Below are positions 6,021 through 11,724 of a DNA stretch of 32,000 nucleotides, piece by piece. This stretch comes from Candidatus Hermodarchaeota archaeon (GTDB taxonomy: Archaea; Asgardarchaeota; Heimdallarchaeia; Hodarchaeales; Hodarchaeaceae), in the NCBI GenBank assembly GCA_048886185.1, contig JBHLKY010000011.1:120001-152000 (forward strand). Reading direction: 5' to 3'. The position numbers were made by a program, and so were the translations under genes. The notes below the pieces were generated by a model. The model did not search any database. It was not told where the DNA came from and saw only the letters and a program-made list of their open reading frames with translations. The stretch's first letter is position 1. Every line of letters starts with the position of its first letter.

Positions 6021-6740
6021 TTAACCCCGTGTGACTGGTATATATGGCGCAAGTAACGAAGCCAATAAACCAATTTCACGATTTTGGGTATACACAACAC
6101 CTGGGCCAGTATACCGAATTACAATCCCCTCTCCGCCAAGGAAGAAGCTTTTTCTTCCACCAACTTTTGAAGCTCGATGTTGCATATTGCTTTGGAATGC
6201 CATCATCACTCCGTTGTCACAAACAAACTCTTGCCCTGGAGCTAGTTCATGACGCTCAATATATCCATATCCACCCATCCATACATCACCATCACCTTCA
6301 GCCATGATTTTAGTCAGTACAAGGCCTTCCCCACCGAGCACACTCTTAAATCCACCCAGTTTTGACGTAACAGCGATACTCGTTGTTCCACAGATGTAAG
6401 CATCTCTACTTAAAGTCCATTCCTCGCCTTTATCAAGGTGGAGATGTACAATATCGCCAGGAGCACCATGTGCAAAGGCAACCATGCCAGGAGGTGCACC
6501 ATCAGGGAGAGAAAAGAAGTTTTGAAACATCGATTCGCCAGAAAATTTTCTTTTCAAACCACGCATGATTCCACCAGCTGATCTAGTTTCCATATGTATA
6601 TGACCATCCATATAGACCATAGCTCCACCCTCAGCTCGTACTTGCTGACCAGGTTGATCTAAATAGATTCTTACTACAGAGAAGGCAGGACTACCAACGA
6701 TTTCATATTTCAAGAATGATCTATCTTTTTCTGCTGACAT
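6021..6740 (-). CDS. AIM24/TIGR00266 family protein
   Basis: AEGGAMVYMD, GGIMRGLKRKFSGESMFQN, GGEGLV, VDNG-like CDNG, GPGVVYTQNR. Confidence 0.92.
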   Translation of the reverse strand: MSAEKDRSFLKYEIVGSPAFSVVRIYLDQPGQQVRAEGGAMVYMDGHIHMETRSAGGIMRGLKRKFSGESMFQNFFSLPDGAPPGMVAFAHGAPGDIVHLHLDKGEEWTLSRDAYICGTTSIAVTSKLGGFKSVLGGEGLVLTKIMAEGDGDVWMGGYGYIERHELAPGQEFVCDNGVMMAFQSNMQHRASKVGGRKSFFLGGEGIVIRYTGPGVVYTQNREIGLLASLLAPYIPVTRG

Positions 6741-6891: not shown

Positions 6892-8169
6892 TTAAAAAGA
6901 TCGCCTTTTTCGTAGATCATACATTACAGAACGTAATTTCTTCCGAGATCCTTTGGTGTACCTTTCTTCACTCAACACGTTGGATAATATCTGAATATTC
7001 TGTTCTTGTAAATTCTTAAGGCTTACTGATCCCCCAGTTTGAGAAATCTGCGAATCAAGCTTTTCTTGAAACTTGTGCATGGTTCTTTGAGCTCCAGAAA
7101 AATCTCCCCGATCGGCCATCTCCATAGCTTCATATTGGACAAACGCAGCTTCTAATAGATACACATTCTCTAGGACTTGCTCATTTTCTGTAGCTAATAG
7201 CTGCTCATCTGTAGTATAACTAATGGTACAGGGAATAGTCGTATGAATTGGTTGTGTTGACCCACTTCGAGAAACCCAATGGACATTAAAAGTCATCGCT
7301 TCGATTTCATGATTCTCTGATGAGGGAATGGTAACATCTAGAATAATTAATAATTCATTCCCACTTCTGAGATCACCTACTTTTGTACTATCCGATAAAC
7401 GGTCTTCATAAGGAACTCCAAGTGCTCTTCGGATATGGACACCTTCTGCTTTATGCCATTCAACCTCAATATTATAAGCTGCAGTCGCTAAGAGACCCTG
7501 AAATTCTTTTTCAATGAATTTAGGGATGTCATCCGCTGTTTCTATGAAGTAGAATGATCCACCAGCAGCATCAGCAATATTAACAAGGAGATCCTCATCA
7601 AAATCGTCACCCACTCCGAACGTACTAATACTAATCCCACCCTCATAAATATTGGTTGCATAACCACAAATGCGGTCATGATCAGTGATACCCTCATTAG
7701 CAAGGCCATCTGAAAGAAGTAATAGTACATTACGATACTCTAAATGTTTGGCACCATCAACTTGCTTTGCTCCCTCTACTAGCCCTGAGTGAAGATTGGT
7801 ACGCCCCCGACTACGAATTGAACGGAGTCGGTTAATAATTGAAGCAGGATCGGTTAAATTAGCCGAGGGGAGAACTGTGTCAACACGATGATCGTATATT
7901 GTTAAAGCAAATACATCCTCCTGAGAAAGATTATTTACCACAAATTCGACCGCTTCCTTGGCTTTTTGAAGTTTGGATCCATGCATGCTCCCAGAACGAT
8001 CAAGAACGACTCCTAAATTCAAATTAGTTCTAGGGATAGCGGTTGAGATCTCCTGAGCTGTTAACTTTAGTTGGATGTAAAGATGAGTTTCACCAGTAGC
8101 TAAAGCATAAGGTGAACTAGGGATTACTTCCATTTTAATGTCTTCAATTTCTTCAATTGGCATATTCAT
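6892..8169 (-). CDS. von Willebrand factor A domain protein (YfbK/CLCA-like) with intact MIDAS
   Basis: NLNLGVVLDRSGSM (DxSxS), GRTNL (T), LLLLSDGLANEG (D), ISTFGVGDDFDEDLL..IA..AGG.FYFI, followed by a beta-rich domain and a helical tail (EAMEMADRGDFSGA). Confidence 0.93.
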   Translation of the reverse strand: MNMPIEEIEDIKMEVIPSSPYALATGETHLYIQLKLTAQEISTAIPRTNLNLGVVLDRSGSMHGSKLQKAKEAVEFVVNNLSQEDVFALTIYDHRVDTVLPSANLTDPASIINRLRSIRSRGRTNLHSGLVEGAKQVDGAKHLEYRNVLLLLSDGLANEGITDHDRICGYATNIYEGGISISTFGVGDDFDEDLLVNIADAAGGSFYFIETADDIPKFIEKEFQGLLATAAYNIEVEWHKAEGVHIRRALGVPYEDRLSDSTKVGDLRSGNELLIILDVTIPSSENHEIEAMTFNVHWVSRSGSTQPIHTTIPCTISYTTDEQLLATENEQVLENVYLLEAAFVQYEAMEMADRGDFSGAQRTMHKFQEKLDSQISQTGGSVSLKNLQEQNIQILSNVLSEERYTKGSRKKLRSVMYDLRKRRSF

Positions 8170-8174
8170 CCCTT

Positions 8175-8825
8175 CTACTTTGTTTGTTCTTCCTCCAATT
8201 TGGCTTGCATCATATATACCTTCTCTCCCTTCTTTGTAATTCTAAGACGCTTCTTTGGTCGTCCTGGTCGTTTTAGTGATCTAATTGGGCCTTTAGGTTC
8301 AGCCTTCGCTTGTTCTATCAAACCTAGATTAATTAATTTCTTCAATCCTACATTAATAGTAGTAGGCGAAAGGAGAGCCTTTTCCTGAAGCTCAATAACA
8401 TTCGCATCTTTGTGTTGTTTAATTTGATGGAGAAGAGCACGATGCGATCGTTTAAGCTCTGTTATTTCAGGGTGTTGAAGAAGTTCTCGATCAAGCATGT
8501 CCATGGCTTGTTGGGTAAGAGAAAATTGATTAGAACCAGGTGGTTCGCGAATAATGAAACCAGCTAGCTCTAATTCTTTTAATCTCCTGTAGATAGTAGC
8601 GGTTGTTGGAAATATTACAGAAGATTCAGAATGATAATTTCCTTTCTGTTTTCGTTTCTGGACTACTTTTTCGTATTCCTTTCTTTGTTCTATGAAGTGC
8701 CTGTTGATTTCAACACTAGTTTTTTTAGGATTTTTCCGAAGAAATTTTAGGATTTCTTCGGTCCCTTTTGAAGCTAGTAAATCTAACATTGTTGTAAACC
8801 CATTAGTGCTATTCTGATTCTTCAA
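8175..8825 (-). CDS. Double winged-helix DNA-binding protein
   Basis: wHTH1: LLASKGTEEILKFL...TATIYRRLKELELAGFIIR...FSLT. wHTH2: ALLHQIK..ANVIELQEKALLSPTTINVGLKKLINLGLI...RPGRPKKRLRITKKG. Gaps of 5 and 15 bp to neighbouring genes. Confidence 0.82.
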   Translation of the reverse strand: MKNQNSTNGFTTMLDLLASKGTEEILKFLRKNPKKTSVEINRHFIEQRKEYEKVVQKRKQKGNYHSESSVIFPTTATIYRRLKELELAGFIIREPPGSNQFSLTQQAMDMLDRELLQHPEITELKRSHRALLHQIKQHKDANVIELQEKALLSPTTINVGLKKLINLGLIEQAKAEPKGPIRSLKRPGRPKKRLRITKKGEKVYMMQAKLEEEQTK

Positions 8826-8840
8826 AATCCTGTTCGAGCG

Positions 8841-10154
8841 TTATCTCCTGCTGAACTTGGGATCTTGAATTGATTGAACCTGCATTTGAGGTATTCCAGG
8901 CGCTCGATACACTTTTCTCCCTTTGAGAATATCGACCTGTTCTTTTGTGGCATAGAGATGTATAGGATGGCCTTGATAGTTTAAACTAATACCTTGCCAT
9001 TTTTTACTGTTAAATCGGAATAAATCACCCGTACCTGTCGCATTATCTTTATTCACTTTCAAGTCTTTGAATTCATCTTGGAGAATCTTTTCCAGGTTGT
9101 CGGGTAGCTTCTGATCGGTTTCAACTTTCTGCATAAATACTCTATCAGTGAGAAATCCCTTGAGGACAACCTCACTGAACTGATTCCAAAGCTTCGGAGA
9201 GCCATAAATTTCAACAGCAAGTAACTTGTCCCCATAGGCACAAATAAGACCAACTTGGTTCTCAAGTTTGATACCCGCAGCTAGCGCTTCCTGGAGATTT
9301 TTGAGATCTTCATCTATTTCGTACGACTTTTCTTGGATTTCACGAAAACTACTAGTAGGAGCATCTTCCGCAGCGAGTTGATAGGCGCCCATTGAAGCAT
9401 ATACTGATTCCCAGACAGTGGACTGATCCCCAGCTTTCGCAGAAACATTGGCCATTTGGGGGGCCATACGAGTTTTAGCTGATTTGAATTTTAATGACGT
9501 GGTTACACCACGAGAACTAGAATATCTCCATCGTGACTGTTCAATACATTTGGCGGGAATTTTTAACGGATTAGACTCATTATGACCAATGGGAATGAGA
9601 ATTGGTTCAAAAATTGTTCTATCCTGTTTACCACCCTCAACCTGATGAAGATATGGAATGAGAACTGGATTTTTACTTTTATTTATCGCCTCGAGAATCT
9701 CAACGCTTTCAGATCCTTCCGATTCCTGGATCCAAGCAAGTTCCTGTTCCTCTGCTTCGAGAAGCCCTAATACGGTTAAAGCTACTTCTGTCTTAATCAA
9801 AGGATAAACTGCAAACTTATCCTGAACTACAGGAGTACCGATATCAAAATAACTTCCTAAATCTTGAATTAAAGTTTGAAACTTCACTTTTTTCCACCTC
9901 TTATTTCTTTTTAAAATCTCCTCAGCAGATAGAGTGAGAATAAATCGCTCTGAATTCGTTGGCAATCTAGTAATCAGGTTCAATTGTTCTAATTCCTTAA
10001 CTCTACGATAAATAGTCGCAGTGGTAAGAGATTTATGACCCGATTTCGTGAAATGGGTGTTTATTATGGCAATAGTAATCCCAGGATTAATTCTTAGGTA
10101 AGCAAGAAGATCGATTGTTCCATCTTTTCCGAGAAGATTAGTGAAATTTTTCAT
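8841..10154 (-). CDS. Winged-helix fused to ARPP-1 (DUF6569)-like domain
   Basis: N-terminal ~85 aa wHTH (TATIYRRVKELEQLNLI). The rest matches my recollection of ARPP-1: FAVYPL, IQESEGSESVEILEAINKSKNPVLI, EGGKQDRTI, IPAKCIEQSRW, QSTVW, QVGLICAYG..LLAVEIYGSPKLW. ATG at 10154; an in-frame TTG lies at 10157. Confidence 0.8.
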   Translation of the reverse strand: MKNFTNLLGKDGTIDLLAYLRINPGITIAIINTHFTKSGHKSLTTATIYRRVKELEQLNLITRLPTNSERFILTLSAEEILKRNKRWKKVKFQTLIQDLGSYFDIGTPVVQDKFAVYPLIKTEVALTVLGLLEAEEQELAWIQESEGSESVEILEAINKSKNPVLIPYLHQVEGGKQDRTIFEPILIPIGHNESNPLKIPAKCIEQSRWRYSSSRGVTTSLKFKSAKTRMAPQMANVSAKAGDQSTVWESVYASMGAYQLAAEDAPTSSFREIQEKSYEIDEDLKNLQEALAAGIKLENQVGLICAYGDKLLAVEIYGSPKLWNQFSEVVLKGFLTDRVFMQKVETDQKLPDNLEKILQDEFKDLKVNKDNATGTGDLFRFNSKKWQGISLNYQGHPIHLYATKEQVDILKGRKVYRAPGIPQMQVQSIQDPKFSRR

Positions 10155-10160
10155 CAATTG

Positions 10161-10213
10161 TTATCAAAAAGTGTAATTATTTAAATATTTCGATTTTTAT
10201 CAAAAAGTGTAAT
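10161..10213. repeat. Exact 17-bp direct repeat ttatcaaaaagtgtaat x2 (10161-10177, 10197-10213); candidate operators
   Basis: Read directly from the sequence. Period 36 bp; the copies bracket the BRE-TATA. Confidence 0.9.
10178..10192 (-). promoter_or_regulatory. Archaeal BRE-TATA promoter of the ARPP-1 operon (predicted leaderless)
   Basis: Minus strand cgaaata-tttaaata. The TATA box ends about 24 nt upstream of ATG 10154. Confidence 0.7.
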
Positions 10214-10224
10214 CAATTTTCAGA

Positions 10225-11724
10225 TTAATATTTTTGAGAAAATGATTTTCTTCGTTTAAGAATAATAACTAAAAGTAGGAAGAATACAATTATGGAAGGA
10301 GACTCAAATCCAGGAATGAGATTTGGTGGATTTGACTCATTTTTGTTTTTGGTTTCCTTACTTGTGTTAGTAGAAAGAGTATTCATTGAGCTTGATACAT
10401 CCTCAATAATTGTGCTGGTGATTGAATCAGTGGGGGAATCGATTACTTCAGAGATCTTTAACAGCCATATATCACCATTTCCAGCGCCATATGAACGCGT
10501 CATTCCCACGATGATAAAACTTCCATCCAGAGTCGGAATAAGAGAATAAGCACGATCTATATCTGATCCACCAAAGGTCTGGTTCCATTTGATTGTTCCA
10601 TTACTATAAGTCTTGACAAGCCAGATATCTTCATCACCAGCCCCATAAGATTCAGTGTCACCAACAATAAGGAATCCACCATCAGGAGTCTGAATAACTG
10701 AATGAGCTTGATCATGTCCCAATCCCCCATAAGTTTGATCCCATTCTACAGAACCGTTGGCATAAGTCTTCACAAGCCACATATCCGAATTATTAGACCA
10801 GTAATTTGTTACCCCAGCCAAGAGGAATCCGTCATCAACAGTCTGAATAACATCGAAGGCATAGTCACATCCAGTTCCCCCATAGGCTTGATCCCATACC
10901 ACTGAGCCATTGGCATAAATCTTTACCAACCACATATCTGCATCATGGGGATAAACTGCGGAGTCTACCGAGTAATGATAATCTATCGTCTTACCTGCAA
11001 TAAGGAACCCTCCATCAATCGTCTGAATTATGGAGTAACCACTATCATCCTTTGATCCATAGATCTGATTCCATTCAACAGATCCATTAGCATCAGTCTT
11101 CACCAGCCACATATCCATATTATTAGGACCAGAGTAGTCTACTGTCTCACCTGCAAGGAGGAATCCTCCTTCTGCAGTCTGAATGGCCGAACGAAGAAGA
11201 CTATTTTCATCTGTAACCCATTCTGTTCTTTCAAAATAATAAGACTGACACCATTCTACAGTTCCATTAGCGAATAATTTCAAAGCTGATCCCCTATCGA
11301 GAACAGGAAGCATATATTGAAGTGAAGAGGTGCCAATTAAGAGGAAACCTCCATCCTCAGTTTGGATGAGGTCAGAAGCCCAATCAGTTCCCCAGATGTC
11401 ATAAGTCTGATTCCATTCCGCCGATCCGTTGGCATAAGTCTTTATAAGCCACATGTCACGTTCATCAGTCCCATAAGGACCAGTGGAACCAGCAATGAAG
11501 ATCCCACCATCAGCTGTCTGAATTGCCTTAACAGCAGAATCCGCTTCAAGTCCACCAAATGTGATATTCAGTTGAATTTGAAAAATATCATTATGTCCAT
11601 TCGTAGTATGATAACTAAATAGTATATAGTCATCATTTTCAATGGCTCCCAACCCAAAGAAGTGTAGACTCAGAATAAGAACGACAAGGGCAAAACTTCC
11701 TCCCATCAGTCTCTTTTGGTGCAT
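10225..11724 (-). CDS. Secreted/surface 7-bladed beta-propeller protein with S/T linker and PGF-CTERM-like anchor
   Basis: N-terminal hydrophobic signal, seven ~50-aa repeats (IQTxDGGFLxxG...DMWLVKTxANGSxEWxQxYG), S/T-rich linker, then IPGFE + hydrophobic helix + KRRK. Confidence 0.85.
   Translation of the reverse strand: MHQKRLMGGSFALVVLILSLHFFGLGAIENDDYILFSYHTTNGHNDIFQIQLNITFGGLEADSAVKAIQTADGGIFIAGSTGPYGTDERDMWLIKTYANGSAEWNQTYDIWGTDWASDLIQTEDGGFLLIGTSSLQYMLPVLDRGSALKLFANGTVEWCQSYYFERTEWVTDENSLLRSAIQTAEGGFLLAGETVDYSGPNNMDMWLVKTDANGSVEWNQIYGSKDDSGYSIIQTIDGGFLIAGKTIDYHYSVDSAVYPHDADMWLVKIYANGSVVWDQAYGGTGCDYAFDVIQTVDDGFLLAGVTNYWSNNSDMWLVKTYANGSVEWDQTYGGLGHDQAHSVIQTPDGGFLIVGDTESYGAGDEDIWLVKTYSNGTIKWNQTFGGSDIDRAYSLIPTLDGSFIIVGMTRSYGAGNGDIWLLKISEVIDSPTDSITSTIIEDVSSSMNTLSTNTSKETKNKNESNPPNLIPGFESPSIIVFFLLLVIILKRRKSFSQKY

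Follow-up and report, generated by a model that had tools for sequence, protein, structure and literature searches.

The wHTH–ARPP-1 operon and its promoter

The feature under study lies on the minus strand of the window, by which the whole 32-kb stretch of DNA analysed here is meant, at the head of an operon of three genes. Gene A encodes a wHTH domain fused to an ARPP-1 domain, gene B a tandem wHTH protein, and gene C a vWA protein. The promoter in front of gene A holds two copies of a 17-bp element. The features of the region are listed below, with promoter positions counted from the A of the ATG.

10224..10240, plus strand: weak third motif-like element ATTAATATTTTTGAGAA of doubtful significance (9.1 bits), inverted, running over the stop codon of the 499-aa gene on the upstream side
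10197..10213, minus strand: putative distal operator site, the same 17-mer ATTACACTTTTTGATAA, -59 to -43, ending 4 nt upstream of the BRE
10188..10192, minus strand: BRE-like CGAAA, -38 to -34, 2 nt upstream of the TATA box
10178..10185, minus strand: TATA box TTTAAATA, -31 to -24, centre -27.5 from the ATG
10161..10177, minus strand: putative proximal operator site ATTACACTTTTTGATAA, -23 to -7, abutting the TATA box
10152..10154, minus strand: ATG start of the wHTH–ARPP-1 gene, 23 nt past the TATA box
8841..10154, minus strand: gene A, 437 aa, N-terminal wHTH (about residues 1–90) fused to an ARPP-1 domain (PF20208, 140 bits, residues 105–403)
8175..8789, minus strand: gene B, 204 aa, tandem wHTH (Pfam MarR and HTH_24 over their cut-offs)
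6892..8169, minus strand: gene C, 425 aa, vWA protein (PF00092, 73.9 bits), third operon gene, starting 5 nt past B

The preliminary description gave sizes of 438 aa and 216 aa for the two wHTH proteins, which are refined here to 437 aa for A, starting at ATG 10154, and to 204 aa for B, whose start is probably the ATG at 8789. The recognition helix of A is TTATIYRRVKELE. In B the helix of wHTH1 is TTATIYRRLKELE, while wHTH2 is MarR-like with the helix SPTTINVGL, and carries a disordered wing loop with an invariant GRP, followed by a C-terminal helix. The profile matches of B are to PF01047 (34.9 bits, cut-off 24.6) and PF13412 (34.9 bits, cut-off 21.9), over residues 126–171 of the 216-aa reading. 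The AlphaFold2 model of B, obtained from a 40-sequence alignment (pLDDT 85, pTM 0.69), contains two winged-helix domains with recognition helices at about 63–75 and 142–154. The best fold matches of this model are in the MarR family, including ST1710 (3gfl, 2yr2), and they are weak (E ~1e-3, TM 0.5 by target). The comparison of B and of A(1–95) with the sequences of solved structures gave marginal matches only, to Lrp/AsnC 2p5v (E = 0.004) and to ST1889 2d1h (E = 0.02). The N-terminal domains of A and B are paralogous (tblastn E 1e-9 to 1e-15), with nearly identical recognition helices, and the recognition helices of B are near-invariant among the aligned B proteins. The B family has 42 database members, and every named one comes from Hodarchaeales-type MAGs. 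The B protein of the window also has a lineage-specific insertion of about 20 aa, rich in K, R, Q and E (residues ~33–53, 8630–8700, minus strand), which no other aligned B has. This insertion lengthens a helix of wHTH1, and it is modelled as one long helix (25–49).

The gene for the vWA protein is syntenic in most orthologous loci. An AIM24-family gene (239 aa, 6021–6740, minus strand; PF01987, 192 bits) lies 151 nt downstream of it, and is likewise syntenic in most orthologous loci (L042, L043, L045, L044, L046, L090, L093). No motif site was detected in front of this gene, which may be part of the system or merely a stable neighbour. On the upstream side, the 499-aa gene (10225–11724, minus strand) has no Pfam match and does not accompany the operon in other genomes.

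Read on the minus strand, the promoter runs from the stop codon of the 499-aa gene through 11 nt, ATTACACTTTTTGATAA, aaat, CGAAA, ta, TTTAAATA, the second ATTACACTTTTTGATAA and caattg to the ATG, within an intergenic stretch of 67 nt upstream of gene A. The distal site begins 11 nt past the stop codon, and the proximal site ends 6 nt before the ATG (10154). The string CGAAA-ta-TTTAAATA at 10192–10178 corresponds to an archaeal BRE/TATA core promoter and is conserved in orthologous promoters. The host genome (4.84 Mb in 75 contigs, ~37% G+C) is that of an Asgard archaeon of the Hodarchaeales and encodes TBP. According to PMC8553660, archaeal TATA boxes are found about 28 nt upstream of the start. 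With the TATA box centred at -27.5, this distance means that the proximal site would fill the interval between the TATA box and the start. Because of this distance, and because 23 nt separate the TATA box from the ATG in the orthologues despite variable spacer letters, we infer that transcription starts at or within a few nucleotides of the ATG at 10154, which would give a leaderless or near-leaderless mRNA. In the host genome there was no peak in the histograms of TATA-like 8-mers against the first ATG of long ORFs or of TATA-to-ATG distances; the gene starts used for them were crude, and the flat histograms have no bearing on whether leaderless mRNAs are common in this host. Hence, the placement of the start relies on the conserved spacing of the operon itself. 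The codon just before the ATG is NTG (TTG, GTG or ATG) in 10 of 15 promoters. The conserved TG at -2/-1 may be an initiator element or an alternative 5′-terminal start codon. A TT at -3/-2 before the distal site is likewise conserved (1.6 and 1.0 bits).

On the plus strand the 17-mer reads TTATCAAAAAGTGTAAT, and its two copies at 10161–10177 and 10197–10213 are exact, with a period of 36 bp from start to start; the minus, coding strand reads ATTACACTTTTTGATAA at 10213–10197 and at 10177–10161. The likeness of the copies extends to 29 nt at 86% identity (10154–10182 versus 10190–10218), and there is no further match to TTATCAAAAAGTGTAAT in the 32-kb window with up to three mismatches allowed. 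Each copy contains a T5 run. The re-reading of the sequence agreed in all coordinates with the preliminary description, which had reported exact 17-bp repeats around the BRE and TATA box. The geometry was also as claimed there, with the proximal copy between the TATA box and the start and the distal copy just upstream of the BRE. These two positions, -23 to -7 and -59 to -43, are those of a steric-occlusion repressor operator, which lies between TATA and start or abuts BRE/TATA. The rough internal dyad symmetry that had been noted is real but weak. The half-sites ATTACA and TTATCA are the same at three of six positions, and the whole site fits TWWCA-N5-TGWWA. The centres of the half-sites are 11 bp apart, which is about one helical turn.

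Conservation and genomic uniqueness of the paired sites

The preliminary description had allowed that the duplication could be an artefact of assembly. Logan contigs, which are assembled run by run, were found for two other sediment samples of the same study, and they cover both copies with zero differences. The contig from sample X2 is 4128 nt long and starts at 10157, while the contig from X4 has 466 nt and covers 10147–10612; both span the two copies. This rules out an assembly artefact, as both copies recur in contigs that were assembled separately from other samples. A second, 224-nt contig from X2 agrees with the window over the proximal site, TATA box and BRE (10157–10192) and departs from it within the distal site. 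It carries a variant distal site, ...TTACCAAAGAATGTAAT on the plus strand, and seems to stem from a co-occurring strain.

Of the 21 other genomes of the genus that were searched, 18 gave homologues of A. Further loci came from genome and metagenome contig collections, and more were reached via relatives of B; the closest loci belong to Hodarchaeota, Heimdallarchaeota and Promethearchaeota MAGs. In this way 14 other distinct promoters were collected (L041, L042, L068, L045, L043, L046, L044, L016, L020, L022, L090, L093, L091, L048), from Hodarchaeales loci in which A or B is 42–80% identical to the window proteins. The data showed two sites of the ATTACA-N5-TGATAA type around the BRE and TATA box in all 14 of them, which bears out the expectation that the motif would recur upstream of orthologous operons. 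The sites of L048 are degenerate, with 12/17 and 13/17 matches. The orthologous TATA box is TTTAAATA or TTTATAAAT at the same place, and most promoters have CGAAA, GCAAA or GGAAA as the BRE. The ATG lies 6 nt past the proximal site in 10 of 15 promoters, with that of the window included, and the letters of this 6-nt spacer vary. Measured as relative entropy over the 14 other promoters, conservation is 1.42 bits per position in the proximal site, 1.14 in the distal site and 0.34 in the 30 nt upstream of the distal site. Hence, the proximal site is better conserved than the distal one. The upstream genes and the 30 nt before the distal site are unrelated between genomes.

The arrangement of the sites varies among the promoters. 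Their centre-to-centre spacing is 36 bp in six promoters and falls within 33–38 bp in thirteen. The two outliers are L045 (26 bp), whose distal site overlaps the BRE, and L041 (46 bp). L020, L022 and L048 carry the entire proximal site in inverted orientation. The asymmetry between the half-sites, ATTACA versus TGATAA, is kept even in flipped sites, and the exceptions are the degenerate L048 and L045 distal sites; no promoter showed a symmetric form of the site. A 10-bp helical phasing of the spacings (26, 36, 46 bp) was considered and rejected, because the other promoters spread over 33–38 bp. Such a spread amounts to about half a helical turn, and lends no support to a protein that bridges the sites rigidly. 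The promoter of L042 (genome G010) has a third strong site (2824–2840, 18.4 bits) 118 bp upstream of the distal site, which is followed by aattcgaaaca as is the distal site. It is a partial duplication of the promoter, and such duplications arise at these promoters.

For the genome-wide search a weight matrix was built from 18 sites of other genomes, with the window's own genome excluded. The two window sites scored 25.7 bits each and ranked first and second in the 4.84-Mb genome, where the next match had 20.9 bits; the reversed-matrix control gave nothing at 20 bits or above in the genome. The only pair of matches of at least 10 bits within 80 bp in the genome is formed by these two sites. 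Outside the operon, the matches of at least 17 bits are single and mostly intragenic, and none is paired or beside a TATA box. A strict two-site pattern had six matches in 22 genomes of the genus, all six directly upstream of an ARPP-1 gene; the reversed control of this pattern had four matches, so that the informative part of this result is the placement rather than the count. The genome scan that had been proposed to define a regulon therefore returned one close pair only, that at the operon itself, and no regulon was found genome-wide with the matrix. The pair is unique in the genome and recurs in 14 of 14 family promoters, all of them with gene B. As the two top genome matches and the only close pair, the twin sites are predicted to be a private operator of their own operon rather than part of a regulon.

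The candidate binder of the sites

The operon's own wHTH proteins had been put forward as the candidate binders. Co-occurrence supports this proposal, and of the two proteins it is B, and not A, that is the constant partner of the sites. Gene B was found in every site-carrying locus examined, while the wHTH of A, the ARPP-1 domain and the vWA gene are not present in all of them. In G003 (L046, with the same sequence in the metagenome contig L067) there is a TAA codon in the recognition helix of A together with a frameshift, and in G007 (L044) an internal deletion removes most of the A wHTH. Both genomes keep strong sites of 18–26 bits, which shows that the sites outlast the loss of the A wHTH. 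The vWA gene is missing from both of these loci, and the ARPP-1 domain ORF, gene B and both sites are intact. L091/L092 and L048 combine an ARPP-1 gene that lacks the wHTH with an intact B, and their twin-site promoter lies about 150–190 nt upstream of the ARPP-1 gene. No remnant wHTH coding sequence was detectable in the 140–170-nt leaders of L091 and L048. The sites of L091 are weaker, at 9.5 and 14.8 bits.

A related arrangement was observed in G004, G013 and G002 (L028, L029, L030), which gave no match to the ARPP-1 domain with the query used. These genomes have a two-gene operon that encodes a small single-wHTH protein of about 125 aa, similar to the N-terminus of A, and a B-like tandem wHTH protein with the helix TSATIYRRVKELQ and the motif GRPKKRHQLTKKG. 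Two inverted motif sites, 25 bp apart and scoring 16.2 and 10–14 bits, lie upstream of this operon, and they are the only matrix matches in the 3.2-kb loci. The first inverted site overlaps the TATA-like sequence TATAAATA in L028, L029 and L030.

The cases of G003 and G007, of L091/L092 and L048, and of G004, G013 and G002 together indicate that B is present wherever the sites are, and B is most likely their principal binder. The conserved asymmetry of the site is also easier to reconcile with a protein that has two different DNA-binding domains than with a homodimer of a one-wHTH protein. In three promoters, which have ATTATA in place of ATTACA, wHTH2 of B has SPNT in place of SPTT, and wHTH1 has RRIKE in place of RRLKE. 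The co-change of SPTT/SPNT with ATTACA/ATTATA may be a single evolutionary event. Where its wHTH is intact, A may bind the same sites as well. Since the lineages without the A wHTH have weaker sites, A could contribute to the selection acting on them.

Regulation of the operon and its relation to known systems

The data make it very probable that the twin 17-bp elements are functional protein-binding operator sites. The reading that we prefer, and that appears probable from the comparative data, is that they serve negative autoregulation of the wHTH–ARPP-1/tandem-wHTH/vWA operon, led by B. Each of the two unlike winged-helix domains of B would read one half-site, ATTACA or TGATAA, and the GRP-containing wing loop may contact the conserved T/A-tract spacer between them. 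A regulator placed on the proximal site, from -23 to -7, would block recruitment of RNA polymerase and opening of the promoter, while the distal site, which abuts the BRE, could provide cooperativity or hinder TFB/TBP. The operon would in this way be held low until a signal releases the repressor. Repression, with an auxiliary distal site, is favoured by the fact that the proximal site is stronger and better conserved, and by the overlap of the distal site with the BRE in L045.

Dual or positive control is conceivable, because the distal site has the position upstream of the BRE that archaeal activators use (PMC4706686). TrmBL1 represses from sites downstream of TATA, where it blocks RNAP recruitment, and activates from sites upstream of BRE/TATA (PMC4706686); all promoters examined here have one site in each position. 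The twin sites could then activate from the distal copy and repress from the proximal one, depending on concentration or ligand. This possibility is unlikely, since the proximal, repressing site is stronger and better conserved and should fill first, and the distal site of L045, which at 26-bp spacing overlaps the BRE, suits occlusion better than recruitment. The fused wHTH of A could instead be the real binder, making A a one-component sensor-regulator, with B doing something else. The near identity of the recognition helices of A and B wHTH1 agrees with this, as does the observation that the sites are strongest where the A wHTH is full or recently broken and weaker where A is without it. We consider it quite unlikely, however, because the sites persist in G003 with its stop codon, in G007 with its deletion, and in the lineages that have no A wHTH, and because a single-wHTH homodimer should select a symmetric site, while the observed site is consistently asymmetric.

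Binding by a transcription factor encoded elsewhere in the genome has nothing direct in its favour, and is very improbable. If a global factor bound them, more sites should occur elsewhere, but the pair is unique in the genome. It also travels with the operon into different neighbourhoods, and a related two-site motif follows the B-like genes into a different operon. That the copies have no regulatory role at all is hardly credible, whether they are taken as a 36-bp tandem duplication of recent date, as an artefact of assembly, as the upstream gene's terminator or as an RNA element. The identity of the copies with flanks alike over 29 nt could point to such an origin, and so could the T5 run in each of them and a weak hairpin that is possible with the end of the upstream gene. 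On the other hand, the separately assembled contigs hold both copies, and both sites are kept in orthologues whose upstream genes differ, where the spacers have diverged and the half-sites are conserved. There was also no Rfam match, and the RNA fold was no better than that of shuffled sequences (z = -1.1).

As an extension of the B-led autoregulation that we prefer, B and A, which share a recognition helix, might compete or cooperate at the asymmetric twin operator, with the ligand or enzymatic state of ARPP-1 setting the promoter, and with a single two-wHTH chain with an AT-hook-like wing reading one 17-bp site. This proposal is speculative and rather unlikely. If it were true, an Asgard-specific conflict system would have in this operon a self-contained switch that combines sensor and repressor. 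To our knowledge, no archaeal regulator has been described in which a single chain reads one 17-bp site with two unlike wHTH domains and a wing resembling an AT-hook.

A typical MarR protein represses the operon that encodes it, acting at sites that overlap the core promoter. B resembles MarR autoregulators of the ST1710/BldR type in its MarR-like wHTH2, which exceeds the profile cut-off (PF01047, 34.9 bits), and in its best fold matches. It differs from them, because MarR proteins have one wHTH per chain, dimerize via their N- and C-terminal helices and recognize palindromes, while the model of B has two unlike wHTH domains and a GRP wing, and the half-sites ATTACA and TGATAA are unlike. The position of the putative operator between TATA and start, or abutting BRE/TATA, is shared with archaeal repressors that block RNAP recruitment (MDR1, Phr, LrpA) or TBP/TFB binding (Lrs14, TrmB), and autoregulation is common in this group. 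These proteins are single-domain dimers from Euryarchaeota or Crenarchaeota, in contrast to B with its two wHTH domains per chain in an Asgard archaeon. We know of none among them that comes from an Asgard archaeon or that uses two identical sites flanking BRE/TATA. An autoregulatory operator that overlaps the archaeal core promoter is a textbook mechanism and not a new kind, and a general statement on the autoregulation of archaeal repressors can be found in PMC12993045.

The TGM motif of TrmBL1 in Pyrococcus and Thermococcus (TATCAC-N5-GTGATA) resembles the window site in being a 17-bp bipartite site with an N5 spacer, a TATCA-like half-site and a wHTH binder, which is putative here. The effect of TrmBL1 also depends on position, downstream of TATA or upstream of BRE/TATA (PMC4706686); in the window operon one promoter has a site in both positions. 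TGM is a true palindrome read by a homodimer, with a regulon of dozens of sites, whereas the window site is asymmetric and its pair unique in the genome. B is also outside the TrmB family by profile, with 22.7 bits to PF01978 against a cut-off of 25.6, and its site is not palindromic.

ARPP domains have been described only computationally, as part of ARG-centred conflict systems and of two-gene units with HIRAN, WYL or deacetylase (PMC9503650). The window operon resembles the two-gene ARPP and WYL neighbourhoods described there (Iyer et al. 2022, PMC9503650) in that a small operon of mobile appearance joins an ARPP domain (PF20208, 140 bits) to a transcription factor of its own. It differs from the systems described there in having wHTH domains, both fused and stand-alone, in place of WYL, and a vWA protein as the third gene. 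The operon contains no ARG or rhodanese-phosphatase gene, and linkage to HIRAN, WYL or deacetylase was not found either; the partners of ARPP-1 are the tandem wHTH and vWA proteins, with AIM24 as a syntenic neighbour. The passages of PMC9503650 that deal with ARPP and rhodanese-phosphatase describe no operator and no wHTH/vWA context, and a literature search found no description of the motif or of any ARPP-operon operator.

The Hodarchaeales are counted among the archaea most closely related to eukaryotes. We know of no experimentally characterized regulator/operator pair from the Asgard archaea, and a literature search found none. The locus offers a compact promoter of 60 bp, with a clear BRE, TATA box and start and two defined sites, as a testable candidate pair. 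About 15 natural promoter variants, with flipped sites and with spacings of 26, 36 and 46 bp, and two small, soluble-looking candidate binders make it possible to define binding and transcription assays without culturing the organism. The uncharacterized ARPP-1 operons of Asgard archaea carry their own putative regulators, which could give a handle on the inducing signal.

Self-regulation seems to be a general trait of the ARPP-1 operons of Asgard archaea, although factors and motifs differ, as suggested by distant operons from Lokiarchaeia-type MAGs that have their own wHTH gene and their own palindrome downstream of the TATA box. In these operons (L050, L056, L057, L058, L059, L061, L063, L073, L086; 27–35% identity), which are two-gene units, a gene for an ArsR-like wHTH protein of about 135 aa stands in front of a wHTH-less ARPP-1 gene. 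Their promoters are situated about 130 nt ahead of the first gene of the unit. Each has a BRE and TATA box and, about 20 nt downstream of these, a conserved palindrome some 30 nt long, TTTTACAGTAAAAA-N3-4-TTTTTACCATAAAA.
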